Shown: positions 5,764 through 18,832, counted from the stretch's first letter. The stretch is 24,000 nt of DNA from Thermoplasmatota archaeon (GCA_029259115.1 JAPDJO010000002.1:27937-51936), one strand, 5' to 3'. Made by a program: numbers and translations. The notes: generated from the letters alone by a model not told the origin.

Positions 5764-6405
5764 ATGGTAGGGAAAAGGAAGAGATATGGAGCAATAGGTA
5801 TCGGCGCAATGATTGTCTTCATTGCAATGGTCCTAGTTGCAGGAATAGCTGCAAGCGTATTGATACAAACCAGCTCCAGATTAGAGAGCCAGGCCATGGC
5901 AACTGGGCAACAAACTACTGCAGAGGTCGCTACTGGTATATCTGTAGCAGGAATCCAAGGACATGTAAATGGAGATATCGACTATCTAGTAATAGAAGTT
6001 AGACCAAGAGCAGGTTCCAAATCCATAGATCTCTCGCAGGCTTTCATAGAGCTCTCCGATTCTAGCAAGAAACTTATACTAAAGTATGACAGCACAGAAT
6101 ATCATGCAAAGAGTGAGATAAATGGAGACGTTTTCCAGGCTGGTTTCTTCGATGGCCTCGGTGCTGAGGAATTTGGAATAATAGTTATGGAAGACGCAGA
6201 CGGCTCATGTACGGCATCAACACCAGTGATAAACAGAGGAGACAGAGTATTCTTAACAGTGAATGTTGGCAATTCTACGGGATTCAACAAATTGGGAGAG
6301 AGAACAGATGTTTGGGGAATGGTTGTACCTGAAGAAGGAGCACCAGGAGTGATCTCATTCAGAACACCAGCGGCTTACACTGAGACAGTGTATGAGTTAC
6401 AATAA
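5764..6405 (+). CDS. arlB1: Archaellin (archaeal flagellin) B1
   Basis: 213 aa. It has a class III signal peptide and the conserved hydrophobic N-terminus MVGKRKRYG|[29 protein letters not shown]. The C-terminal [14 protein letters not shown] motif is shared with the other copies. Confidence 0.92.
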
Positions 6406-6419
6406 GGAGGTGAGAAAGA

Positions 6420-7055
6420 ATGAAGATAATGAATAGAAAAAATGTTGGAGCAATAGGTATCGGCGCAATGATTGTCTTCATTGCAATGGTCTTGGTTGCA
6501 GGAATAGCTGCAAGCGTATTGATACAAACCAGCTCCAGATTAGAGAGCCAAGCCATGGCAACTGGAGAACAAACCACCGCAGAAGTAGCTACCGGTATCG
6601 CGGTAGCTAATGTAGAGGGTCATGTTTCTAGTGGAAGCATAGACAAATTAGCAATATCTGTCAGACCAAGAGCAGGCTCAAAGGATATCGATCTCAGTAC
6701 AGTTGTATTAGAACTCTCGAATTCAACAACAAAATGTGTTCTCACCTATGATAGCACCCAATTCGCGAGCACGCCTGCTGCTGCAGGCTTATTCTCGACA
6801 AGTGCATTTGGATTGACGGCTGGTGAGTTTGGAATAATAGTTCTAGAAGATGCCGATAACTCTTGTACATCATCTACACCAGTAATAAACAGAGGAGATA
6901 AAGTAGTACTAACCGTCAATGCCACCTCTACATTCAGCGGTATAGGTGTAAGAACGGATATATGGGGAAGGGTTGTACCTGAAGAAGGAGCACCTGGAAT
7001 AATATCATTCAGAACACCACCATCACTAACAGATACAGTCTACATGCTGCAATAA
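6420..7055 (+). CDS. arlB2: Archaellin B2
   Basis: 211 aa starting MKIMNRKNVG|[36 protein letters not shown] lies 8 nt upstream of the ATG. The N-terminal ~125 nt are nearly identical to arlB1. Confidence 0.92.
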   Translation: MKIMNRKNVGAIGIGAMIVFIAMVLVAGIAASVLIQTSSRLESQAMATGEQTTAEVATGIAVANVEGHVSSGSIDKLAISVRPRAGSKDIDLSTVVLELSNSTTKCVLTYDSTQFASTPAAAGLFSTSAFGLTAGEFGIIVLEDADNSCTSSTPVINRGDKVVLTVNATSTFSGIGVRTDIWGRVVPEEGAPGIISFRTPPSLTDTVYMLQ

Positions 7056-7065
7056 TCTAGATAAA

Positions 7066-7105
7066 CCCTTTCTTTCCAATATTTTTTTATTCTTTTTATC
7101 TTTTT
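7066..7105 (+). terminator. Oligo-T cluster between arlB2 and arlB3; candidate (partial) archaeal intrinsic terminator
   Basis: T7 at 7082-7088, T5 at 7093-7097 and T5 at 7101-7105, preceded by the pyrimidine-rich CCCTTTCTTTCC. Archaeal RNA polymerase terminates at oligo-T tracts. Confidence 0.4.
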
Positions 7106-7139
7106 ACTAATTGGAAAACGGAGGTGGAAGAGGAACTAA

Positions 7140-7781
7140 ATGTTTAGACTAGATTCCAGAGCTAATTCGGGTGCGATAGGTATAGGTGCTTTGATTATTT
7201 TTATAGCTATGATACTCGTGGCAGGAATAGCTGCTAGTGTTATTATACAAACAATGAATAATCTTCAGAACAGGGCTATGAGCACAGGGAGGGAAACTAT
7301 AAGAGATATTTCTGCTGGAATAGAAGTACGACAAGTTTCGGGGTATGTTGTAAATTCAAAGGTAGATCAATTAGCTATCTTTGTATCTCCAATTGTTGCC
7401 TCAGAGGATATCGATCTCTCACACACTTTTATATCTCTCTCAGATACTAACAAGAAAATCATACTATCCTATGATAGTAATATGTTCAGCAGTTCAGTAA
7501 ATAATGGAGTTTTTCAGGCACTAAACTCTAGTAACTTAACATCCTCAACTTATGGAATTGTTGTCATAAGAGATCTAGATGGTTCTTGCACAGCAACATC
7601 ACCCGTGATTAATGAAAATGATATTGTCGCTCTCATTGTAAACACAACAAAGTGCTTTTCCGGTATATCTCCAAGAACAGAAGTATCTGGAAATGTTGTT
7701 CCAGAGTATGGAGTCAGTGGAGTGATAAGTTTTGTTACCCCGCCTGCACTAATAGACAAGATCGTTGATCTTCAACCTTAG
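7140..7781 (+). CDS. arlB3: Archaellin B3 (the divergent copy)
   Basis: 213 aa starting MFRLDSRANSG|[35 protein letters not shown] at 7120-7127 lies upstream. It is more AT-rich and more divergent than B1 and B2. Confidence 0.9.
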   Translation: MFRLDSRANSGAIGIGALIIFIAMILVAGIAASVIIQTMNNLQNRAMSTGRETIRDISAGIEVRQVSGYVVNSKVDQLAIFVSPIVASEDIDLSHTFISLSDTNKKIILSYDSNMFSSSVNNGVFQALNSSNLTSSTYGIVVIRDLDGSCTATSPVINENDIVALIVNTTKCFSGISPRTEVSGNVVPEYGVSGVISFVTPPALIDKIVDLQP

Positions 7782-9553
7782 ATGTAACTACCAAGGAATG
7801 TCGTCACAACAAAGCTTGTTATGCTGACTATCCAGACCATTGGAACAAAGTATAGAAGCGTTATTAATAGGTGACTCCCCCTCAGTTCTTTAATTGTTAA
7901 GGACAAAATCAAACAATGGATAACCAAGACGAGAAACACGACATAGAATATATTAGAAAATATCTGTGGAGGAACCGTAGTTAAGATCGCCCCTATATTT
8001 ATCTGCTGTAGATTTTTAAAGGGCTCTCCTGCCTCAAGCCATATCTCGTTGAGATGCTGCGCAATAACTAGAGATACGTATATAGAGAAAGCAATCCCAA
8101 AGGTTATTCCTAGGAAAAGGGAGACAGTAGTTTTTATTATTGATAACTTTTTCAATCTTAAATCCCTTATCTTTCTTATATTCTCTGTTATCATCCTAGC
8201 CACATCTCTTGGATTAGCGGCGGCATAGGTTGCTTCTCTGAACATCTCACTACCCCTTTGTATGTAATTGCTACACGTATCTACGCCAAACCATTCCCAT
8301 GCTGCATCATCATCTATTCTTGTGCTCAATCTTTTGTAAAGATTTCTTATGTGCGGAGTTAATATTCCATAATCCTTTTCGCTCAGATATTTCACGGATT
8401 CGTTTATCTTTCCTCCCTTCATTGCAGAGATAGAACCGAGTGCGGGTAAGAATCCAAGGAAGTTTCTCTCCCTTCTGAATATATTCTGTTCTTCGATGAA
8501 TGTTTTTATCCCAGGTATAATCAACGGAGTCAAAGCTATTGAAACAAGTATCTCATTTGGTATCAAGCTGAAAATTTGATAACCAGAAAATTTCAGATAA
8601 AATAGAAAAATGCCCAAGACTACAGATACCATGATAGATAAGAAAAATAGTCTGTAAAGATTCTTTTCAGTTTCACTTTTCTCTCCGGTCTGGGGCCATA
8701 TCTCATCAGCGGGCATCATGGATTTGAGCAAATAAAGAAGCAATCCTTCGGTTGCTATTAATGCAAACGCTGAACCATAAACAAAAGTGTTCATGTCTGC
8801 TGTACCCATTATCATTGGTAGAACCAATCCGAAAGACATTACGAAAACAATAGATATTAATAGACTAACATAGACCTCATTCAGTATAGTTAGATTTTCA
8901 TTTGCAGACTCATACATGGTCTTGTATTCTTCCATGACTGCGCCCTGCTCCTGCTCTATAAATTCTCTGTGACTAACTCCACTAACTAAACTTTGAGAAA
9001 ACCTATCTAGAAAATCCCTGAGCATTTTGCTAGGCGTTCTCTCTGATATGAATCTAAAGGCTCTAGCTAGGGGAACCTTCCACTGGGTAGAGAGGATACT
9101 TATCTTTCTTATCTCATCCCCTAGACTCTTGTAAACCTTTCTTTTTTCACCGATTGTATTGATGATATCCTTCAGGGATAGATCAGATATAGCAAGAACC
9201 CTTAGATGGGTTATAAAGAAATGCATCTTTCCGTTAATCTCGTTTTCTCTGTTCTTCCAGCTAATGTAGGGATATAGTATACTCAAGACAATGATTATAA
9301 GCCCGACACTTGGAAAGGCAATAGGATTTAGAGTTATTGAGAGGTATTTGTTTAGAGTAAACGGAAATATAATTAAAAATATCCCAAAGGCTAAGGAGGG
9401 TAGAAGATTCTTTTTGATAAATCCTTCAAAATCTTCTAAATTTCTATAGGCTATCCTTAGATCTTTGATAAAGCCACTCTTTTCTCCTCCTTCCTCTAAC
9501 TTTTTTTCCTTTTTGATTAGTAGTTTTCTCCTCTTATTTCCCTCCTCAACCAT
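7778..9553 (-). CDS. arlJ: Archaellum polytopic membrane platform protein ArlJ (FlaJ)
   Basis: 591 aa with many transmembrane helices separated by two cytoplasmic TadC/GspF-like domains. It is the last gene of the accessory operon, directly after arlI. Confidence 0.88.
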   Translation of the reverse strand: MVEEGNKRRKLLIKKEKKLEEGGEKSGFIKDLRIAYRNLEDFEGFIKKNLLPSLAFGIFLIIFPFTLNKYLSITLNPIAFPSVGLIIIVLSILYPYISWKNRENEINGKMHFFITHLRVLAISDLSLKDIINTIGEKRKVYKSLGDEIRKISILSTQWKVPLARAFRFISERTPSKMLRDFLDRFSQSLVSGVSHREFIEQEQGAVMEEYKTMYESANENLTILNEVYVSLLISIVFVMSFGLVLPMIMGTADMNTFVYGSAFALIATEGLLLYLLKSMMPADEIWPQTGEKSETEKNLYRLFFLSIMVSVVLGIFLFYLKFSGYQIFSLIPNEILVSIALTPLIIPGIKTFIEEQNIFRRERNFLGFLPALGSISAMKGGKINESVKYLSEKDYGILTPHIRNLYKRLSTRIDDDAAWEWFGVDTCSNYIQRGSEMFREATYAAANPRDVARMITENIRKIRDLRLKKLSIIKTTVSLFLGITFGIAFSIYVSLVIAQHLNEIWLEAGEPFKNLQQINIGAILTTVPPQIFSNIFYVVFLVLVIHCLILSLTIKELRGSHLLITLLYFVPMVWIVSITSFVVTTFLGSYI

Positions 9554-9562
9554 ATTTCAAAC

Positions 9563-11218
9563 CTATACATCTATTGGAAGACCATCTACACCTTCCCTGT
9601 AATATGTCCATATAACCTTGACAACTTCGTAATAATCTAAGATATCTTCCTCGACCATCCTTTCTAATATTTTTTGCCTAAGATCAAATTCTTCGTATAT
9701 TTCTGTTGGATCTGCATATCCTGCGTTCCTCGCTATCTTTTCTTCTAAAATGTAACTATTCTTGTAAGCCACAAATCTATGGACATCCTCTAAAGGATCC
9801 CATTCGAAAGCCTTTCTAGCCATAATTCCGTCTGCTTCTCTGTTATATCCCTCTATCTCATCTACAGATATGCATCTTCTAACTTTCTTTCCTTTCCTCT
9901 CAACGGCAGACTGTATGAGAACAACATCCAGATTATCCATAAATGTCTTCGGAACGTTTATGGGATCGCTCGTAAACCTCTGTATAACCTTCGTTACACT
10001 GCCAGCATGAAATGTAGTCATAACAGGATGTCCAGTCTGCATCGCTTGGAATACTATGTTGCCTTCTGCACCTCTAACTTCACCAGGTATTATATAGTCA
10101 GGTCTTGATCTTAAAGCAGCTACTAATAGATCAAATAAATCTACTCTACTTTCTTCTGGCCCTGTTGTTTTTGTTAGTAGCCTTTGCCACACCTCATGAG
10201 GAACTTTCAGCTCTGGGGTTGTCTCTGCTGTGTATATCTTTTTCTCTGGCGGTATAAAAGGAATAAAAGCATTCATGGTAGTGGTTTTTCCGCATGCTGT
10301 CTCTCCGCATAGAAAGATATTTCTACCATACTGTAGGCATATCCAGAAATAGGCAGCTATTCCTGCGGATATCGTCTTCCATTTAATAAGCTGGGTTACG
10401 CTTATTGGTACTTCCGTGAACTTTCTTATGCTCATGCTTGGTCCTTTTATGCTCACAGCTGAGCTATATATTATATTAGCCCTGCTACCATCTGGAAGGA
10501 TACCATCGGATATGGGTTTAGCTTCGCTGACAGGATTACCCATTTTTTCACTTAAAGCTCTCGAAAATTTTGGAGCTTCATCTTTGGGTATCAGAATATT
10601 TGTTTTGATCATCCCAAATACTTTGTGAATAAGATGAACATATTCTCCAGTTATGACGTGTATATCTTCTATATACGGATCCCTCATAAAAGGTTCAAGA
10701 GGCCCTCCTCCAACTAAGGTCTTGTATATATCATATTCTATCTTTTCTTTCTCCAGTGGTGTAAGATATACTTTGCTCTCGTTTTTTCCGAACAGCTTAA
10801 GAAGACTTTTCTGGGATTTCAGTTTTATATTGCTCTCTGTTGTTACAACAATCTCATCTAACAATTCTTTCAATATCTTTTTCAGATCCTCATCATTATC
10901 TGCTGCATTCTTCCTTACGACCTCCTTTAACATAAGCTTCATTATCTTTTCTTTCTTTTCTTTCTCCTCATCATTCAAAGAAGGCTCTATCGCATGATAC
11001 TCTATCTCTTCCATCCCAGGCAGTCTATAGATGTGAACAAAAACATTTCCTTTGGTTGGGTATATTATGTTTGGATACTTCTCTTCGCTTAGTTCCATTG
11101 GAGGAGCTTTAAGAAATTTTGGTGTATCCATTTTTTCCTTTATCTTGTCGAGATATTCCTTCAAGTGGGGATTCTGTTGGATTATCTTTTCGATTTCCTC
11201 CCTCTCCATTTCATACAT
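9563..11218 (-). CDS. arlI: Archaellum motor/assembly ATPase ArlI (FlaI), distal paralogue
   Basis: 551 aa of the type II/IV secretion ATPase family. Walker A is GETACGKTT and the Walker B region is RSRPDYIIPGEVRG, followed by FQAMQTGHPVMTTFHAGS. It is about 70 percent identical (by eye) to the neighbouring copy. Confidence 0.9.
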   Translation of the reverse strand: MYEMEREEIEKIIQQNPHLKEYLDKIKEKMDTPKFLKAPPMELSEEKYPNIIYPTKGNVFVHIYRLPGMEEIEYHAIEPSLNDEEKEKKEKIMKLMLKEVVRKNAADNDEDLKKILKELLDEIVVTTESNIKLKSQKSLLKLFGKNESKVYLTPLEKEKIEYDIYKTLVGGGPLEPFMRDPYIEDIHVITGEYVHLIHKVFGMIKTNILIPKDEAPKFSRALSEKMGNPVSEAKPISDGILPDGSRANIIYSSAVSIKGPSMSIRKFTEVPISVTQLIKWKTISAGIAAYFWICLQYGRNIFLCGETACGKTTTMNAFIPFIPPEKKIYTAETTPELKVPHEVWQRLLTKTTGPEESRVDLFDLLVAALRSRPDYIIPGEVRGAEGNIVFQAMQTGHPVMTTFHAGSVTKVIQRFTSDPINVPKTFMDNLDVVLIQSAVERKGKKVRRCISVDEIEGYNREADGIMARKAFEWDPLEDVHRFVAYKNSYILEEKIARNAGYADPTEIYEEFDLRQKILERMVEEDILDYYEVVKVIWTYYREGVDGLPIDV

Positions 11219-11233
11219 GTTTCTTTCACTTTC

Positions 11234-12880
11234 TCATATCGAGAAAGGTAGACCATCTATCCCCTCTCTATAATAACTCCAGACTATCTTCACAACCTCA
11301 TAGTAATCCATTATCCCCTCTTCCACCATTCTTTCAAGTATTTTCTTCCTTAGATCAAACTCTTCGTAGATCTGCATCCTGTCTTCGAAGCCCGCATTCT
11401 TTGCGATTTTTTCCTCTAGGATATAGCTATTTCTGTTAGCCCTAAATAGATGAGTATCATCTACGGGATTCCACTCAAATGCTCTTCTTGACATGATCGC
11501 ATCTACTTCCTTGTTATATCCCTCTATCTCTTCTACAGATAATACTCTTCTTATCCTTTTCCCTTTCCTGTCTACCGCCATCTGTATCAGTATAACATCC
11601 AGATTATCCATGAAAGGCTTCGGTATATTTATTGGATGTCCGGTAAACCTCTGTATAACCTTCGTTACACTGCCAGCGTGAAATGTTGTTATAACAGGAT
11701 GTCCAGTCTGCATCGCTTGGAAGACAACCCTTGCTTCTATACCTCTCACCTCACCAGGTATTATATAGTCAGGTCTCGATCTGAGGGCTGCATCCAGAAG
11801 ATCTATAAGCTCAACATGACTCTCCTTTGGGCCTGTTGACCTAGTCAAAAGCTGTTGCCAGACTGGATGAGGAACATGAACTTCTGGTGTGTTTTCTGCT
11901 GTATAGATCTTCTTCTCTGGAGGTATAAATGGAATTATTGCATTGGTAGTGGTAGTCTTTCCAGAAGCTGTTTCGCCGCATACAAAAACACTCCTACCAT
12001 ATTGTAAGCACAGCCACAAGTATGCAGCTATTCCTGCACTCATCGTTCCCCATTTAATAAGTTGGGTTACACTTATTGGTGTCTCGCTGAACTTTCTTAT
12101 GGTCATTGTTGGACCTTTTAGGCTTACATCTTTGCTGTGAATTATATTAACTCTACTGCCATCTGGTAATGTACCATCTGCTATGGGTTGTCCTTCGCTG
12201 ACCGGACTACCTATCTTTTCACTAAACTCTTGGGAAAAGGTAGGTGCCCACTCCTCATCTATGAATATATTTGTCTTTACCATCTCAAACACTTTATGTA
12301 CAAGATGAACATGTTGTCCAGTTATGACATGAACATCTTCTATATATGGATCTCTCATAAAAGGTTCAAGAGGCCCTCCCCCTATGATACTCTTAACTAT
12401 ATCATATTCTATCTTTTCTCTTTCAATAGGTGTAAGAACGATCTTTTCTCCTTTGAACTTGCCAAATAATCCTTTCTTTTCCTCTATATCTCCTTTCTTT
12501 TCAGAAACTACAACTATCTTATCCATCATCTTTTTTATGAGTTCTCTTATTTCCTCATTCGTCCTCATTTCTTTCTTTTTTATCGCTTCTTCATAAAGCC
12601 TTTCCATAATCATATCTCTTTTCTTCTTCTCCTCATCATTCAAAGAAGGTTCTATCGCATGATACTCTATCTCTTCCATCCCAGGTAGTCTATAGATATG
12701 GATAAAGACCGTGCCTTTGGTTGGATATATCAAGTTAGGGTACTTTTCATCTCTCAGTTCTCTAGGAACCTGACTGTAGAATCTTGGAAAATCCATCTTG
12801 TCCTTTATGCTTTCTAGATATTCTTTTAAATGAGGATTCTGCTGAATCAATTTCTTAACCTCTTCTTCGTTCATTATCAT
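11234..12880 (-). CDS. arlI: Archaellum motor/assembly ATPase ArlI (FlaI), proximal paralogue
   Basis: 548 aa. Walker A is GETASGKTT and the Walker B region is RSRPDYIIPGEVRG, followed by FQAMQTGHPVITTFHAGS. It directly follows arlH. Confidence 0.9.
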   Translation of the reverse strand: MIMNEEEVKKLIQQNPHLKEYLESIKDKMDFPRFYSQVPRELRDEKYPNLIYPTKGTVFIHIYRLPGMEEIEYHAIEPSLNDEEKKKRDMIMERLYEEAIKKKEMRTNEEIRELIKKMMDKIVVVSEKKGDIEEKKGLFGKFKGEKIVLTPIEREKIEYDIVKSIIGGGPLEPFMRDPYIEDVHVITGQHVHLVHKVFEMVKTNIFIDEEWAPTFSQEFSEKIGSPVSEGQPIADGTLPDGSRVNIIHSKDVSLKGPTMTIRKFSETPISVTQLIKWGTMSAGIAAYLWLCLQYGRSVFVCGETASGKTTTTNAIIPFIPPEKKIYTAENTPEVHVPHPVWQQLLTRSTGPKESHVELIDLLDAALRSRPDYIIPGEVRGIEARVVFQAMQTGHPVITTFHAGSVTKVIQRFTGHPINIPKPFMDNLDVILIQMAVDRKGKRIRRVLSVEEIEGYNKEVDAIMSRRAFEWNPVDDTHLFRANRNSYILEEKIAKNAGFEDRMQIYEEFDLRKKILERMVEEGIMDYYEVVKIVWSYYREGIDGLPFSI

Positions 12881-12889
12881 TTTATCACC

Positions 12890-13603
12890 TCAGAATGCAA
12901 CCGCTGAAGTTTCTATTGTTAAACCTATACCTGGTCTTACTGAGAAGGTTGTTACTGGCTCATACCTATGCCTTGCACCATTGAACTTTTTGAGATAGAT
13001 ATTATGCACAATTCCCAAACCTGGCTTAGTTTCTCTAGTTACTAAGAAGTGAAGATCTGATATCATCCTAAACTCGTGATTTATCTCTTCATCCCACTCC
13101 TTCGGATTCATAGTAATAAATATGATCTTTCCAGATCCCGTTAATCTGTTAAAGAAGCTGATCAACTCTACAAGATTCTCTTTGTTTAAACTCTCCTTGA
13201 GCAGGGTAGATAGTGAATCTATGAAAATTATCTCTGGCTCAAAGAGTTTTTTAGCTGTTATAAGAGATTTAAAAAAGGTATTTCTTGGTAAAGTTTCAGC
13301 TAGCATAACCTCCGTTGAAATGAAAAACAGCTTGCCGGACATCAGATATTCTTTCATATCATATCCAACAGAAGCGACCTGGCGAAGAAAACCCTTAACA
13401 GTATATTGCGTTGATACATAGGAGCAAGTATGTCCATTTTTAAGAAAACTGTAACAGAATCTCTGGCAAAATATGCTTTTTCCTGTGCCTTCTTCACCCT
13501 CTATCAAAACTAAAGAACCATCTGGTATAGCCTGACCAAATCTCTGCTCAAATCCATCCTTCTCTCCTCCTCTTTCGAGTACTATGGATTTATAGGTCGG
13601 CAT
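12890..13603 (-). CDS. arlH: Archaellum KaiC/RecA-like ATP-binding protein ArlH (FlaH)
   Basis: 237 aa with Walker A GEEGTGKS and the Walker B-like IIFIDSLS. It occupies the canonical position between arlG and arlI. Confidence 0.88.
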   Translation of the reverse strand: MPTYKSIVLERGGEKDGFEQRFGQAIPDGSLVLIEGEEGTGKSIFCQRFCYSFLKNGHTCSYVSTQYTVKGFLRQVASVGYDMKEYLMSGKLFFISTEVMLAETLPRNTFFKSLITAKKLFEPEIIFIDSLSTLLKESLNKENLVELISFFNRLTGSGKIIFITMNPKEWDEEINHEFRMISDLHFLVTRETKPGLGIVHNIYLKKFNGARHRYEPVTTFSVRPGIGLTIETSAVAF

Positions 13604-13612
13604 CCCATCACC

Positions 13613-14065
13613 TCATATCTCAAAGTTAAACTCATCATAGACCCCTCTTGGACCAACAAGCTTTAGTTTATGGTTTCCAGAAGTTATTTCCGTGGATGAT
13701 ATGTATAGAGTTACCACATCTGACTGTAAAACATAGTTAGAAGAGAAGTAATAGTTGCTTTTTCCAATGATATTTCCATCTACGAAGACCTGAAATGTAT
13801 CATTTGTTGTTTCTATCTTCTTATCACCTATATTTTTAACATAGAAAAGATAATATCCAGCTGATATCGGTATATTTTCTGGATCATTTATGATCTCAAA
13901 GTCTGTGTCTAGCTTATCTTTGAGCCTATCACATTTCTCTGTCAGACTTTTACTTATGTCCATGGTTACAGCGGTGAATATTCCAGATACTGCTCCAGCT
14001 ACGATTACAGCTGCGATGAAGAAAACTATGTGAGTTCCCGTCAAACTGAAACCCATCCTAATCAC
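13613..14065 (-). CDS. arlG: Archaellum stator/periplasmic protein ArlG (FlaG)
   Basis: 150 aa with an N-terminal hydrophobic archaellin-like helix (GTHIVFFIAAVIVAGAVSGIF) followed by a beta-rich domain. The F-versus-G assignment rests on gene order. Confidence 0.75.
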   Translation of the reverse strand: MIRMGFSLTGTHIVFFIAAVIVAGAVSGIFTAVTMDISKSLTEKCDRLKDKLDTDFEIINDPENIPISAGYYLFYVKNIGDKKIETTNDTFQVFVDGNIIGKSNYYFSSNYVLQSDVVTLYISSTEITSGNHKLKLVGPRGVYDEFNFEI

Positions 14066-14488
14066 CTATGCACTATACGTCTCATAATCGCTAATCCCAT
14101 TTCCAGTGACAACTTTTACTCTTACTAAACCAGTATAGGTAAGATTTGTTATGTTGAGAATAACTGTATTTTCAGGATAGAGATAGGGAAGGTTATAATC
14201 GAAGTCCTCGATAGTTCCATTTACTATAACCGTGAAATCCTTAACCTCCAAGCTTACACTACCTGTATTTTCCACTTTTATAGAAATATTATAAGGTTTG
14301 CCCGGGCTTTTAGTTACATTTGTTATCTCTATATCCGTATTTGCTCTCTCTACGATTCTATCTTCCAATTTTTTGTAAGATCTTTCCAACTCAGATGCAG
14401 CCGGAAGAACACTACTCGAGAATATATCTATACATACAACTAGGCATACACCTAGTATTGCGAATGCCGCTGATGTTGAGAATCCCAT
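14066..14488 (-). CDS. arlF: Archaellum stator/S-layer-binding protein ArlF (FlaF)
   Basis: 140 aa with the MGFSTSAAFAILGVCLVV N-terminus followed by a beta-sandwich-like region. Its stop abuts the arlG start. Confidence 0.75.
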   Translation of the reverse strand: MGFSTSAAFAILGVCLVVCIDIFSSSVLPAASELERSYKKLEDRIVERANTDIEITNVTKSPGKPYNISIKVENTGSVSLEVKDFTVIVNGTIEDFDYNLPYLYPENTVILNITNLTYTGLVRVKVVTGNGISDYETYSA

Positions 14489-14517: not shown

Positions 14518-15285
14518 CTATTGAAAGGAAAGATTCTCAAGATTCTTGCTAAGTTTACTCAAATCTCTCTCTATTTTTCCTATGAAGTGCTCATCTATCT
14601 CGTTACCTTTCAACTTCTGTATGTAAAGGAATGATTGAATGTGATCCTTTGCTACAAGATTTCTTCTCTCGCTGGTTTCTTCTGTTATCCCTTCACAGTA
14701 CTCAAGTAACTTTACCTTTACATCATCTGTTATCCATCCAATATCGACGTAGTAATCTAAAACCTTGGAAATGTTATCTTTTCCTACTCTATCCACGAGG
14801 TATTGTAGCCACTTCATTACTATTACAACACCTTCTGGATCATTTGGTAGGGAATCCAAAGTAGATGCTCTGAACTCTATCTTTTCTTCTCCAGGAATCC
14901 TTATATCTTCTGGCTTGCTTTCCTTGATTTTTACATCCACATTTTTCATCCACTCGTCCTGCATCCTTTCTAGTCTCTCCACTCTTTGATGAAGATTCTC
15001 TAAAGTCTGAAGGAATTTGTTCATCTCTTCAGCAGGCTGAAATGATGTTGTGCTTGGAGGAGTTGATGGCTGAGATGTAGATGAAGTTTGTGTGGACTTC
15101 TCTCTCAGATATGAATTTATCTTATCAACTAATTTATAAAGTTGATCCTTGGTTAAAGTTAAATTTTTCTCTTTCACCTTCTCTTTTATCTTTTCAGCTA
15201 TTGATGGCGTTATTCTACCCTGAGCAACGAGGGCAGAGAGTTCTGCGCCTAGCTCAAATTTTTCAACCAAATCCTTATCACTCAT
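14518..15285 (-). CDS. arlD: Archaellum accessory protein ArlD/E (FlaD/E family)
   Basis: 255 aa. The C-terminal LPNDPEGVVIVMKWLQYLVDRVGKDNISKVLDYYVDIGWITDDVKVKLLEY matches the FlaD/E domain signature (W-L-x-x-L ... YY-x-x-I-G-W-I). A Ser/Thr/Pro linker and an N-terminal helical region precede it. Confidence 0.85.
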   Translation of the reverse strand: MSDKDLVEKFELGAELSALVAQGRITPSIAEKIKEKVKEKNLTLTKDQLYKLVDKINSYLREKSTQTSSTSQPSTPPSTTSFQPAEEMNKFLQTLENLHQRVERLERMQDEWMKNVDVKIKESKPEDIRIPGEEKIEFRASTLDSLPNDPEGVVIVMKWLQYLVDRVGKDNISKVLDYYVDIGWITDDVKVKLLEYCEGITEETSERRNLVAKDHIQSFLYIQKLKGNEIDEHFIGKIERDLSKLSKNLENLSFQ

Positions 15286-16024
15286 TTTTTACCTCCTCCA
15301 AAAACCTATCAATCACATCATCTATACTATCTTCCAACATTAACGTTGATATTGCTTTTTCTACAACATCATCGAGTTTCATAGAACTACCCGATAATGT
15401 AGGAGTAACCTCTGTAGCCATCCCTGTAGTCTCAGTAGATCTATCTGTCGGTATTTTACCAACAAGTATTTCCAAATCTTCTAGCCTGCTTTTTATCTTC
15501 TCAAACTCTTCTGTGAATTTCTCTAGAGCTTCTAGCCTCTGCTTTGTTACTTTTGATAAACCAACAAATGGATTCATTTGTTCAGAGACTATTTCGTATA
15601 GGCTTACCAAATCATCTAAATCCTTGTTGAGATTCTCTATTCGATTCTCGAGATCCTTTATCATGTCCCTATTTTTTGATATTTCGACTTCCAACTTAGA
15701 CAATTGTTTATCTAAGTTTGGTAAGATGTTGGTAGCTGGTACTTGTGGTTGCGATTGTTTATCTTCCTCCTTGACTGGGGCAGGAGTTATCTCCTTTTCC
15801 TTGGTTTCTAAGGTTACATCTTGTTGCTCTTCCTGCTCCTTCCTGCTCTCGGTTTCTTCTGAAGAACTTTCCTTCTTCTCGAATTTCAACATTTTCCTAG
15901 TTCCGTCTCCAAGATCAACCTCTTTTACCATAACTTCTTCCTTGTTTTCTTTTATCTCCCCCTCCTCTTTCCCTTTCCTAAACTTTAACTTTATACTAAC
16001 CCCTCCACCTCCGTTTTTAAACAA
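15278..16024 (-). CDS. arlC: Archaellum accessory protein ArlC (FlaC family)
   Basis: 248 aa. A coiled coil ends in DDLVSLYEIVSEQMNPFVGL, the FlaC signature (YE-x-V-x-x-x-x-NPF). The start is uncertain: the track start is TTG at 16024, and the first ATG is at 15931 (Met32). It overlaps arlD/E by 8 nt. Confidence 0.8.
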   Translation of the reverse strand: MFKNGGGGVSIKLKFRKGKEEGEIKENKEEVMVKEVDLGDGTRKMLKFEKKESSSEETESRKEQEEQQDVTLETKEKEITPAPVKEEDKQSQPQVPATNILPNLDKQLSKLEVEISKNRDMIKDLENRIENLNKDLDDLVSLYEIVSEQMNPFVGLSKVTKQRLEALEKFTEEFEKIKSRLEDLEILVGKIPTDRSTETTGMATEVTPTLSGSSMKLDDVVEKAISTLMLEDSIDDVIDRFLEEVKNE

Positions 16025-16147: not shown

Positions 16148-17983
16148 ATGTCACAAGATAGTAGATCCAATAATTATATGGATTTTTTTATACTTGGTAT
16201 AGATAGCAATGCTAGACTTATTGCATTCAACAGAAAGTGCGAAGAGTTAACTGGTTACAGGAGGGATGAGATTCTCCATAGAAAGATATGGGGCACCATT
16301 TTTCCTAAAGAATATAGAAGGAATTGGAATAGTATATTTTTGGATAGGGTAGAAAGAATCGAGTTACCTCTCCTAGATAAAAATAGAAAGAGGCTAGATC
16401 TAGTCTGGAGTCCTATGGAAGTAGGTATCAAAGATAAAGAAATTTGGCTCATTGGAGTAGAGAGATCGGAAGAAAATAAACTCTGGGATTTTTTAGAAAT
16501 AGAAAAAGTTGGAAACCCTGTTGATAAGAAAAATAATAACGAGAATCTGAAGAAAAAGATCGATGAATTGTTAAAAGTCAAGAATTCAATAGAAATTGCA
16601 ACAAATCTTATAGAAAGACAATGGAAGAAGATAAGTGATTATGCAAAACAACTAAGCAATATGGAAAAGATTTTGGAGAAAGAAAAAAGAAAACTTGAGA
16701 AAGAGAAGAAAGAGATGGAGAAACATAGGGAAAGAGTGGAAAACCTAATGGAGAGAAAACTTTTCTATTTTGAGAGAAAACTCAGGGAAAAAACAAATAA
16801 AATTTCCAAACTAAGTGAGAGAGGATCTGTTTTAAAGAATTTGAATGAAAGATTGAGAGAGATAGAGTATATGAGCAGGGAACTAGAAGTAATGTTGAAT
16901 GGAGTGATGGAAAAAGAGGCAGAGATCAAAGATCTAGAAAAGAGAATTAACCTAGAGAAGGAAAACTTGGAGAAAGACAAAAGAGAAATCAGAATGAAGC
17001 TGAAAACCATTGAGACCAAGGAAAAGGAACTGGTAAGAAAAGAGAACGAGCTGAGAAAAAGAATCAGAGAGGTAGAGAATAAGGAGAGAGATATACAAAA
17101 TATGAAAATCAAACTGGAAAATGAAAGGAGAATATTGGAAGAAAGGATGAAAGATATTGAAAAGAGACTGGAATTAGAGAAAAATATATTCATGGAGCAA
17201 CTAGAGAGTAAATATAAAGCTGTATTTGAAAGAAAAATAAATGATCTCAAAAGAAAACTCGAAGATTATAAAACAAGAGAAAAAGAACTTAAATTAGATA
17301 TAACTCTCCTTAAAAAAAGAGAGAAGGAATTGGAGAAGGAGATAGAGAAATACAGATCTAAGGAAAAGGAGCTACTTGAGCTAGAGGAGAAGATAAATAA
17401 AGAAAGAGAAGAAATCGCTAAACTCGAAGAAGAAATCAATGCAAGGAGTAAACTGCTAGAAGAGATGGAAAACAGGGAAAGAGAAATCATATACAGGGAA
17501 AACGAACTCAGGAAGAAGGAGAAACAACTCAGGGAGAAAGAGAGAGAGCTGATAGATAGAGAGAGAGAACTCCGAGACATGCTTATAAGATCATCATTAC
17601 AAGAAACGACATTGCCTATAGTGAAAGAAACCAAAAAATTGGAACAAGAGACCGAAGAATCAAAAGATCTCTCTGAGATGGAGATCCCTGCCGCACTTGT
17701 AAGGAAAGGAATGATCCTCAAAGCAAATGAACAGTTCCTTTCTCTCACAGGACTTAGTGAAAGAGATATTACCAACAAAAGCTTCTTTTCGTTGATAGCT
17801 CCAGAAGAACTCCCAAACCTGCAGAGATATTACTTATCTAGATTAAAAGGAGCAGATATAGATTCAATCGATACTATTATAGTGAACAGCAAAAATGAAA
17901 AAATACCAGTGAAAATAAAATTAAATCAAATAAAATTAAGAGACGGTATCTTTGATTTAGCGCTTATAGAGTCGTTAGACTAG
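16148..17983 (+). CDS. PAS / long coiled-coil / PAS protein with no recognisable output domain
   Basis: 611 aa. The N-terminal ~110 aa are PAS-like (FILGIDSNARLIAFNRKCEELTGYRRDEILHRKIW). Residues ~125-490 are an uninterrupted E/K/R/L-rich heptad-type region. The C-terminal ~100 aa form a second PAS-like fold (ALVRKGMILKANEQFLSLTGLSERDITNKSFFSLIAPEE). GGAGGT lies 8 nt upstream of the ATG. Confidence 0.8.
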   Translation: MSQDSRSNNYMDFFILGIDSNARLIAFNRKCEELTGYRRDEILHRKIWGTIFPKEYRRNWNSIFLDRVERIELPLLDKNRKRLDLVWSPMEVGIKDKEIWLIGVERSEENKLWDFLEIEKVGNPVDKKNNNENLKKKIDELLKVKNSIEIATNLIERQWKKISDYAKQLSNMEKILEKEKRKLEKEKKEMEKHRERVENLMERKLFYFERKLREKTNKISKLSERGSVLKNLNERLREIEYMSRELEVMLNGVMEKEAEIKDLEKRINLEKENLEKDKREIRMKLKTIETKEKELVRKENELRKRIREVENKERDIQNMKIKLENERRILEERMKDIEKRLELEKNIFMEQLESKYKAVFERKINDLKRKLEDYKTREKELKLDITLLKKREKELEKEIEKYRSKEKELLELEEKINKEREEIAKLEEEINARSKLLEEMENREREIIYRENELRKKEKQLREKERELIDRERELRDMLIRSSLQETTLPIVKETKKLEQETEESKDLSEMEIPAALVRKGMILKANEQFLSLTGLSERDITNKSFFSLIAPEELPNLQRYYLSRLKGADIDSIDTIIVNSKNEKIPVKIKLNQIKLRDGIFDLALIESLD

Positions 17984-18832
17984 CTCTACTATTCTGTTTG
18001 TGAACACACATGGTGCAGCAGCATCAAATGTACCAGGCGCTCCTACCTCCGGAACGAAGCTGCCAGATATTGATGCTCTTGGTGGTAATCCGGTTGAGTT
18101 GAATGCAGCAGAGAGATTGACTATTATTATTGCTTTGTCTCCGACATTCATACCATAGTTCCTGTATATTGAACCATCTGCATCGTGTAAGGCTATTATT
18201 CCAAAGGTTGTTGCATTCAGAGATACGCTCAGCGTATGGAAAACTCCATCTGGACTAACCTTGGATGCAACATATCCGTCTTGGTCAGAGTATGTTAATG
18301 TAATTAGCCTATCATATTTCAGATATAATATAGTATTCTTGAGATCTATATCTTGAGAACCAGATCTTGGTCTCACAGTCAGAGCCAGATGGGTTATGTA
18401 TGTCTTATTCTCGTTTGTATAACCTACTACATCTATAACAGCTAAGCCACTCGAAATCTCTCTAGTTGTCTGCAAACCAACCTTGTTCGCTCTTTGTTGC
18501 AGAGTTTCTCCAGTTTTTATAAGAACGCTTGCTGCGACCGCAGATACCAGAATCATAGCTATAAACACTATCAGTGTACCTATACCAACGAAAGCCATTT
18601 GATCTCCTTTAAAACTCTTTTTGATTTTCCTCATTGATCTAGGCTTTATTGCCACTATTGACTTCAGATTCAAACAACCTAGCCCTTGATCAGAATCTAC
18701 GATCACAAAACCTGCATCATAATCTATTTCTTCCAAAATCCCAGAGATGACACTAGCTCTTTCCTTACCCGGCTCCTTTAATACTATCTTACAGTATCTT
18801 CCCACCAGCCTATCCATATACCTCTTCTCCAC
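17975..18832 (-). CDS. arlB4: Fourth archaellin with an in-frame N-terminal extension (Sm-like small beta-barrel pattern)
   Basis: 285-aa ORF. Residues 80-285 are a typical archaellin (FVGIGTLIVFIAMILVSAVAASVLIKTGETLQQRANKVG ... PEVGAPGTF). Residues 67-79, MRKIKKSFKGDQM, resemble a normal class III leader. Residues 1-66 are extra. There are three candidate starts. GTG 18832 has AAGGAGGTG upstream (GGAGG at 18842-18846, 9-nt spacer). ATG 18634 has no obvious SD. ATG 18598 has AAGGAG 5-6 nt upstream. Confidence 0.85.
   Translation of the reverse strand: MEKRYMDRLVGRYCKIVLKEPGKERASVISGILEEIDYDAGFVIVDSDQGLGCLNLKSIVAIKPRSMRKIKKSFKGDQMAFVGIGTLIVFIAMILVSAVAASVLIKTGETLQQRANKVGLQTTREISSGLAVIDVVGYTNENKTYITHLALTVRPRSGSQDIDLKNTILYLKYDRLITLTYSDQDGYVASKVSPDGVFHTLSVSLNATTFGIIALHDADGSIYRNYGMNVGDKAIIIVNLSAAFNSTGLPPRASISGSFVPEVGAPGTFDAAAPCVFTNRIVELV

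Follow-up and report, generated by a model that had tools for sequence, protein, structure and literature searches.

An ancient tandem pair of archaellum motor ATPase genes in a clade of Thermoplasmatota

The archaellum operon contains two arlI genes

The DNA analysed here, referred to below as the window, is a stretch of 24,000 nucleotides (nt) from Thermoplasmatota archaeon GCA_029259115.1 (JAPDJO010000002.1:27937-51936), an uncultured archaeon of sediments and vents. All coordinates are window positions. The minus strand carries a complete archaellum operon, which contains two genes for the ArlI/FlaI motor ATPase where a single one would be expected from canonical systems. Both lie between arlH, which encodes the KaiC-like ATP-binding partner of ArlI (12890..13603; Pfam PF06745, E = 2e-20), and arlJ, which encodes the membrane platform (7778..9553; Pfam T2SSF, E = 3e-10), each of these being present as a single copy. 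The upstream paralogue, arlI-a (11234..12880; Pfam T2SSE, E = 1.8e-30), encodes a protein of 548 amino acids (aa), and the downstream paralogue, arlI-b (9563..11218; Pfam T2SSE, E = 8.2e-27), one of 551 aa; all four genes are on the minus strand. The stop codon TGA of arlI-a is followed by a 15-nt spacer, GAAAGTGAAAGAAAC (11219..11233, minus strand, read from the sequence), and then by the start codon ATG of arlI-b. The two open reading frames (ORFs), with the lengths, the spacing and the position between arlH and arlJ reported in a preliminary description of the window, were confirmed.

Every gap in the operon from the arlC-like gene to arlJ is 30 nt or less. Across the 64 genomes described below in which both genes are complete, the gap between arlI-a and arlI-b has a median of 38 nt and ranges from -4 to 170 nt. 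Gaps as short as these are consistent with co-transcription of the two genes.

In the window, arlI-a and arlI-b are in one reading frame, with a single TGA and five sense codons between them, such that read-through would produce a fused a-b protein. The shared frame is not kept in other genomes, in which the gap is often no multiple of 3, and the in-frame arrangement is probably coincidental.

Both paralogues are intact ArlI-type ATPases

Pfam PF00437 matches both copies. The nearest solved relative of arlI-a is FlaI from Sulfolobus acidocaldarius (phmmer, E = 1.8e-109), followed at a distance by CpaF (4e-41) and PilT (1e-9). The AlphaFold2 model of arlI-b has a predicted local distance difference test (pLDDT) score of 78, and its top six Foldseek matches are all FlaI chains (4ii7/4ihq), with E values of about 2e-44 and 546 columns aligned. 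The Walker A motifs, GETASGKTT in arlI-a (11951..11977, minus strand) and GETACGKTT in arlI-b (10280-10306, minus strand), the PDYIIPGEVRG sequence and the TGHPV(I/M)TTFHAGS box were located where the preliminary description had placed them. On the basis of these comparisons we assign both copies as intact ATPases of the ArlI/FlaI family (T2SSE superfamily) within a complete arl operon. In a PilB/PilT-type pair, the second ATPase would be shorter, PilT-like and without the N-terminal domain; here both proteins are full-length, co-linear and 69% identical.

That identity, with 86% positives over the full length by BLASTP, bears out the estimate of about 70% made earlier by eye, and with it the view that the second copy is no assembly duplicate. 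At the DNA level the genes are 71.7% identical, and at third codon positions only 51%. Divergence had been placed in the N-terminal 230 or so residues. It is indeed N-terminal; however, it is concentrated in residues 88-150 only, where the two proteins are 27% identical, whereas the flanking segments 41-87 (87%) and 151-190 (78%) are among the best conserved. The DNA for this variable, paralogue-specific segment occupies 12431..12628 in arlI-a (aa 85-150) and 10760-10963 in arlI-b (aa 86-153), both on the minus strand. In the model of arlI-b it consists of two helices, 83-102 and 109-123, and a disordered linker, 130-146.

One ancient duplication, kept across the clade

The occurrence of the pair was surveyed with a scan of one genome per GTDB species, which yielded 77 loci, all labelled Thermoplasmata, Thermoplasmatota or similar. 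In all 64 genomes in which an ORF and BLAST scan found both genes complete, the order is arlH-arlI(a)-arlI(b)-arlJ. Among the 77 loci of the clade there was no single-copy arlH-arlI-arlJ locus, and in those without a complete pair the locus is cut off where the contig ends or is broken by a frameshift or scaffold gap. A metagenome scan added about 25 further two-copy loci, and homology searches returned many contigs that encode an a-like and a b-like protein together. Both a 91% relative and a 74% relative of the window have the same arlH-arlI-arlI-arlJ order and the same wider synteny, and the synteny of the arl operon around the pair is kept in the loci designated L001, L002, L081 and L083. 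Several of the loci belong to metagenome-assembled genomes (MAGs) that were assigned to Thermoprofundales, also called MBG-D (Marine Benthic Group D), by Zhou et al. (PMC6461988): L016 (M11B2D), L009/L071 (3300003432D), L042 (SG8-52-3) and L024 (SM1-50). Motility is not mentioned in that paper.

In a neighbour-joining tree built from 143 full-length proteins (73 a, 70 b), upstream and downstream copies separate without exception, with a bootstrap of 100/100: a always adjoins arlH, and b always adjoins arlJ. Mean Kimura distances are 0.30 among a sequences, 0.36 among b sequences and 0.53 between a and b. Outgroups were 48 ArlI representatives taken from a library of 1.84 billion proteins, together with outgroup loci from metagenomes. 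The a and b proteins are jointly monophyletic in 200/200 replicates against the 48 representatives and again in 200/200 against the metagenome loci, where the sister group, L087-L096, is single-copy. The metagenome outgroup loci are arlH-arlI-arlJ with one copy, except for a separate tandem lineage (L110/L111, below). Because a and b are monophyletic together and the split between them is perfect, a single duplication must have occurred after the separation from single-copy relatives and before the clade radiated. This shows one ancient tandem duplication, dating to the ancestor of a large clade of Thermoplasmatota to which the Thermoprofundales/MBG-D MAGs belong, with both copies kept since. 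A phylogeny of ArlI had been proposed in the preliminary description, and its outcome is this ancient duplication with a and b in separate clades. A horizontal origin of copy b was also considered, and is ruled out by the joint monophyly in 200/200 replicates.

The pair cannot be explained as an assembly or binning artefact, that is, as a collapsed or expanded repeat or as merged strains. Nothing was found in favour of this for the pair itself, and only the three-copy array of L083 discussed below, which contains a perfect 1665-bp repeat, could on its own be an assembler loop. The copies are 28% diverged in DNA and fall in separate clades, and no fewer than 64 independent assemblies, produced in many studies, have the same arrangement, among them two MAGs (L031 and L054) whose deposited record is a single chromosome. 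An artefact is refuted for the arlI pair, and we give it practically no weight.

A few loci depart from the standard arrangement. One arlI is split or truncated in the MAGs of L007 and L022 (the b copy in both) and L067 (the a copy), which could represent sequencing or assembly frameshifts or occasional pseudogenisation. An apparent fusion of b with arlJ in L018 turned out to be a scaffold gap of 100 N.

The second, phylogenetically separate tandem lineage comprises L110 344-3568 (Ga0265296_1004516), L111 1119-4334 (Ga0180732_1000794) and probably L148. Its order is likewise arlH-arlI-arlI-arlJ; the copies share 55% identity with each other and 47-49% with the proteins of the window. In the downstream copy the His-box sequence MQTGHP is replaced by MQAGNS, and Walker A of the upstream copy contains GKTAA. 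Since this lineage is separate, tandem arlI duplication arose at least twice.

Comparison with described systems

In canonical archaella, one arlI serves both assembly and rotation (PMC4858521, PMC12448462), and Makarova et al. list FlaI, FlaH, FlaJ, FlaF and FlaG as "a single copy of each" (PMC4858521). The premise of the preliminary description, that described archaellum operons carry one arlI, agrees with these reviews. No description of tandem arlI was found in the archaellum reviews and surveys covered or in two Thermoprofundales genomics papers, and within the open-access literature searched the two-arlI archaellum operon appears to be undescribed. It had been allowed that duplicated arlI might prove common and already characterised in this lineage: it is common (64/64 genomes), but we found no characterisation of it. 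The clade-wide two-arlI operon contradicts the single-ATPase generalisation of current reviews.

The window proteins share family, fold and Walker A, Walker B and His-box residues with S. acidocaldarius FlaI (PDB 4IHQ, 4II7). They are slightly longer, at 548 and 551 aa compared with about 513, although the Foldseek alignment is still nearly full length. The context is that of the canonical arlH-arlI-arlJ core with arlC/D/E and F/G genes and archaellins, except that two paralogues are fixed side by side. Lineage-specific duplication involving arlI is also seen in the two archaellum loci of Methanosarcina (PMC4858521); there a second site carries a copy of the entire locus, whereas in the clade of the window the duplication is of arlI only, in tandem and within a single operon. 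Within Thermoplasmatota, a type IV filament operon with two ATPase genes is known from Cuniculiplasma divulgatum (CdiPE1/CdiPE2) and was flagged as an outlier by its authors, but it belongs to an adhesive, Aap-like pilus and not to an archaellum (PMC12448462).

Several paralogous hexameric ATPases of the same superfamily per filament machine are familiar from the bacterial PilB, PilT and PilU proteins, and pilT and pilU are often adjacent. Those ATPases are ancient paralogues, highly diverged and with different architectures, that work as distinct homohexamers of opposite function (extension versus retraction), unlike arlI-a and arlI-b, which are 69% identical, full-length ArlI-type proteins and form a monophyletic pair inside ArlI. 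A different kind of parallel is offered by the archaeal thermosome, a group II chaperonin whose paralogues, in work from 2002 attributed to Archibald and Roger, reportedly combine recurrent duplication and gene conversion with assembly into hetero-oligomeric rings. Both cases involve ring-forming ATPase paralogues with lineage-specific short conversion tracts in conserved segments, and co-assembly is plausible for the arlI pair. The thermosome belongs to another protein family with another function, and its hetero-oligomery is demonstrated, whereas for the arlI pair it is only inferred.

Selection and paralogue signatures

Pairwise ratios of nonsynonymous to synonymous substitution (dN/dS) between orthologues are 0.03-0.13 for a and b alike, indicating that both copies are under strong purifying selection. 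The Walker A lysine K308, the Walker B glutamate E377, the His-box histidines H394 and H401 and the five arginines R367, R369, R379, R444 and R445 are invariant in the 73 a and 70 b sequences; the idea that one copy might lack catalytic residues is therefore not borne out, all of them being invariant in both sets.

The P-loops do differ between the clades. Copy a has the outgroup-type GETASGKT (E303 in 73/73 sequences, S306 in 72/73), whereas copy b mostly has GGTACGKT (G303 in 55/70, C306 in 57/70, or 81%). Copy b also has Cys at His-box position 396 in 52/70 sequences (74%), and its mean Cys count is 5.1, compared with 2.3 for a. These comparisons show copy b to be evidently the more derived one, with copy a keeping the ancestral P-loop. 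The Cys in the P-loop of the distal copy had been described as unusual, but this did not hold up: it is a conserved signature of the Cys-rich downstream paralogue. Just four positions, I115L, E153Q, I223M and H248Y, combine conservation of at least 90% in each clade with a difference between the clades. The variable segment, aa 88-150, is better conserved within b than within a; K102 and D108, for example, are at least 95% conserved in b only.

Gene conversion and a probable chimeric third gene

The two genes contain near-identical patches, all on the minus strand. Patch 1 is at codons ~41-87, with its core (codons ~62-84) at 12629..12697 in arlI-a and 10964..11032 in arlI-b (extended tracts 12627-12730 and 10962-11065). 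Patch 2 is in the His-box region, codons 387-413, at 11643..11722 in arlI-a and 9972..10051 in arlI-b. The mismatch counts given for these in the preliminary description are exact, at 2 in 69 nt and 3 in 80 nt respectively. Patch 3, at codons ~155-205 around the motif GGGPLEPFMRDPYIED, lies at 12267..12419 in arlI-a and 10596-10748 in arlI-b, and comprises 113 nt with 15 mismatches and a perfect stretch of 22 nt at 12398-12419.

Synonymous divergence along the pair is not uniform; a uniform divergence had been named as the result that would speak against conversion. The proportion of synonymous differences (pS) is 0.17 at codons 387-413, 0.37 at codons 148-193 and 0.66-1.0 over most of the remaining gene; codons 41-87 as a whole have 0.55. 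In the relative L001, patch 2 has a pS of 0.61. Patch 1 is specific to the window lineage. In patch 1, a and b differ at 2/69 nt in the window and at 16-28 in five other genomes, and orthologues differ from the window at 11-19/69 nt. In patch 2 the 3 mismatches in 80 nt compare with 11-14 elsewhere, and orthologues differ at 9-14/80 nt. Over the 64 genomes, the best-matching 69-nt a/b segment contains between 0 and 14 mismatches, with a median of 9.5; the window, with 2, ranks sixth lowest, and in no other genome is this segment at the position of patch 1. Identical synonymous codons make up 60% of the a/b comparison in the window and 46-50% in relatives, with 47% in L006, in which the GC content of third codon positions (GC3) is as low as in the window and patch 1 has 28 a/b mismatches.

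A 3SEQ-like permutation test for mosaic structure gives p = 5e-5 to 2e-4 for patch 1, and the same test gives no signal there in L081 and L001. For quartet sites the prevailing pattern switches from orthology to concerted in the bins at codons 41-80 and 161-180, the latter bin having 1 orthology site and 7 concerted ones. For patch 2, with the stronger tracts masked, the result is borderline (p = 0.02-0.06), and for patch 3 (codons ~148-193), with patch 1 masked, p = 0.01-0.04; as conversion tracts these two patches are moderately supported. Other genomes have sharp tracts at various positions in the gene, among them codons 436-528 in L030 (91 consecutive identical synonymous codons), 423-452 in L075, 387-412 in L056, 262-284 in L029 and 163-184 in L005 and L036. 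In a stratified shuffle of synonymous codons, 11/64 genomes have P < 0.01. No tract was seen in the variable segment aa 88-150 in any genome. The tracts cluster in the most conserved protein motifs, as is expected if stretches of nucleotide identity seed recombination.

The closest relative of the window is the sister strain L083, with protein identities of 98.5% for a and 99.1% for b and an identity of about 95% at the DNA level over the locus. Between its arlH and arlJ lie three ATPase genes (L083 1221-6197), in an array that contains a perfect 1665-bp tandem repeat. The first ~255 nt of the middle gene (P0002, 549 aa) match the strain's own b at 100% identity and the remainder matches its own a, also at 100%, with the junction inside patch 1, in a 22-nt stretch common to a and b. 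Unequal homologous recombination between b and a at patch 1 would produce exactly such a three-gene array with a b/a chimera. The triplication is more likely real than not: with just 22 bases shared, an assembler could have made such a loop only from chimeric k-mers at the larger values of k typical of metagenome assemblers.

Several results count against recombination as the origin of the patches and of the chimera. For the window pair taken alone, the stratified shuffle gives only moderate clustering of identical synonymous codons (P = 0.0165) and the longest-run test is not significant (P = 0.38), so that the case for conversion rests on the comparisons with orthologues. A mosaic test restricted to synonymous sites (against L081, L001 and L005) drifts across most of the gene and localises no tract, because synonymous sites are saturated relative to the nearest usable orthologues and because GC3 has dropped in the window lineage. 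Saturation is also apparent as a third-position a/b identity of about 45% in most 20-codon bins of most genomes. GC3 is 0.35 in the window lineage and 0.43-0.52 otherwise, and a lower GC3 alone raises a/b codon identity. The triplication in L083 rests on one short-read metagenome scaffold, for which an error in the assembly path is possible.

The patches might instead reflect selection at the nucleotide level (codon bias or an RNA element) in conserved segments, together with AT drift of the lineage. Such an explanation would fit the position of patches 2 and 3 in the most conserved protein motifs, where many genomes have their best a/b segment, as well as the low GC3 and the diffuse synonymous-only test. 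It does not fit the orthologues, which differ at normal rates within patches 1 and 2, nor L006, which has the same low GC3 and 28 mismatches in patch 1. Moreover, the best a/b segment is at patch 1 in no other genome, the tracts of other genomes lie elsewhere, and the L083 chimera breaks exactly in patch 1. For patch 1 nucleotide constraint is largely refuted, and overall we consider it very unlikely. The alignments indicate that arlI-a and arlI-b recombine occasionally and that short conversion tracts produce the near-identical patches. The ongoing gene conversion proposed earlier is real, with strong evidence at patch 1 and moderate evidence at patch 2.

Homing of an intein was considered as a cause of patch 2 and rejected; inteins occur in 0/143 a/b genes, and the seeding of recombination by conserved segments is simpler. 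Inteins are found in ArlI homologues from other archaea, P0217 (Methanosalsum natronophilum), P0218, P0221, P0224 and P0244, either at about residue 394 in the His box or near Walker A, and those near Walker A include LAGLIDADG homing endonuclease domains.

How two ATPases might serve one motor

Both proteins presumably act in the same motor. The arrangement that we favour, tentatively, is a mixed a/b hexamer of ArlI, plausibly alternating as a3b3. Such a ring would sit between a single ArlH ring and a single ArlJ platform, with all six sites catalytically competent. Through the paralogue-specific N-terminal helices (aa 88-150) and the P-loop of the b type, it would have subunits of two kinds with which to bind partners or be regulated, for instance in switching between assembly and rotation. 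A mixed hexamer is suggested because the genes appear to be co-transcribed and their products are ~70-80% identical across the core that, by analogy with FlaI, would form the subunit contacts; because this core has almost no fixed differences, there being four diagnostic positions; because conversion swaps core segments without loss of either gene; and because the genes are tightly linked and are accompanied by one arlH and one arlJ. Paralogues of homomers that stay similar in the core generally keep cross-assembling, a principle known from studies of paralogue heteromers. A stronger version, which we find doubtful, is that Thermoprofundales-type archaella are driven by an obligate hetero-hexameric a3b3 ring, in which the derived, Cys-rich b (with its GGTACGKT P-loop and His-box Cys) would be the regulated subunit, possibly redox-sensitive or specific to rotation.

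The precedents point the other way, since to our knowledge every characterised type IV filament system with multiple ATPases (PilB, PilT, PilU) uses separate homohexamers. The ArlI paralogues could likewise form two specialised homohexamers, one for assembly and one for rotation, or for opposite directions of rotation, or for different archaellins, the rings exchanging at the ArlJ/ArlH base like PilB and PilT. Strict co-retention of two active copies would be expected of such a system, and the difference between the paralogues is concentrated in the N-terminal helical segment aa 88-150; in a 2013 study attributed to Reindl and co-workers, the extreme N-terminus of Sulfolobus FlaI is said to separate rotation from assembly. 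The recently described archaeal pilus operon with CdiPE1 and CdiPE2 (PMC12448462) adds a case of two ATPases in one operon. However, at 69% identity a and b resemble each other much more closely than PilB and PilT do, and their domain architecture is the same; hardly any fixed differences in the core would stop them from mixing, and conversion keeps re-homogenising core segments; nor does the operon contain a second platform protein or a second ArlH. Overall we regard two homohexamers as the main rival, somewhat less likely than the mixed ring. The two proteins might also be redundant or condition-specific isoforms, either being enough, with the pair retained for its dosage or because the two differ in regulation or stability, one being, for example, a Cys-rich, redox-tuned version. 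Catalytic residues are all kept in both copies, b is systematically Cys-rich (5.1 Cys, compared with 2.3, at the P-loop in 81% of sequences and the His box in 74%), and the sister strain L083 seems to tolerate a third, chimeric copy. But redundant duplicates are normally lost, and the sampled clade has no single-copy locus despite divergence that saturates dS; dN/dS is equally low in both copies, and with the genes in a single operon, separated by short gaps, there is not much scope for controlling their transcription separately, so that isoforms of this kind are improbable.

A central question about the archaellum is how one hexameric ATPase assembles a filament and then rotates it in both directions. 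A globally abundant sediment lineage that has kept two active ArlI paralogues in one operon since before its radiation, as two subunit types differing mainly in the N-terminal helical segment and the P-loop, is a natural experiment on assembly and rotation. An a3b3 ring, if it exists, would be the first motor ATPase of the type IV filament superfamily to be heteromeric, and nature would have separated the assembly and rotation roles that are joined in a single ArlI elsewhere. Whether the motor has a mixed ring or two rings, the pair supplies constructs (a6, b6 and a/b mixtures with ArlH) and paralogue-specific residues for biochemistry and cryo-electron microscopy. The locus is also a clean example, in archaeal population data, of short-tract conversion and unequal crossing-over between tandem paralogues, and annotation pipelines and archaellum models of the MacSyFinder type should permit two arlI genes.

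Natural a-b fusions were sought as Rosetta-stone evidence, but this was abandoned, as the long hits P0234 and P0285 are distant pilus-type ATPases and not ArlI. P0234 (1154 aa) has two T2SSE domains and P0285 (1605 aa) at least three, both with PilB3_C matches; they represent natural fusions of tandem ATPases or else artefacts of gene calling.

Other genes of the locus

Upstream of arlH on the minus strand are two small archaellin-fold genes of the arlG/arlF type (13613-14065 and 14066-14488; Pfam Arch_flagellin), arlD/E (14518-15285; Pfam Arch_fla_DE) and an arlC-like gene (15278-16024; Pfam FlaC_arch). Three archaellin genes, identified from their translations (213, 211 and 213 aa), lie on the plus strand at 5764..7781, convergent with arlJ, an arrangement also present in L001, L002 and L083. 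The first two of them (5764-7055, plus strand) share an identical stretch of ~39 residues near the N-terminus, and in L083 a 69-nt stretch is 100% identical between two archaellin genes (9345-9413 and 10004-10072); the tandem archaellin genes seem to be homogenised as well.

A gene on the plus strand at 16148-17983, between the arlC-like gene and an extended archaellin, encodes a protein of 611 aa in which a very long predicted coiled coil, rich in Lys and Glu, lies between PAS domains at the two ends. At this position L001, L002 and L081 have PAS proteins of 489-510 aa, and the window protein may provide sensory input to the archaellum motor.

The extended archaellin (17975-18832, minus strand) has 285 aa, with the archaellin domain starting at aa 80. 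An N-terminal domain of ~65 aa (MEKRYMDRLVGRYCKIVLKEPGKER...AIKPR) stands ahead of an apparently normal class III signal peptide (MRKIKKSFKGDQ / MAFVGIGTLIVFIAM). For this extension, Pfam gives no hint beyond weak similarity to the C-terminal SH3 domain of RimP (E = 0.023). It is kept on archaellin ORFs of 284-314 aa at 26 other two-arlI loci, with 52-81% identity and E values down to 1e-44, an occurrence that is neutral with respect to the idea that one ATPase is dedicated to the extra archaellin. If the prepilin peptidase cuts at the usual site, a small cytoplasmic domain would be freed from the extended archaellin.

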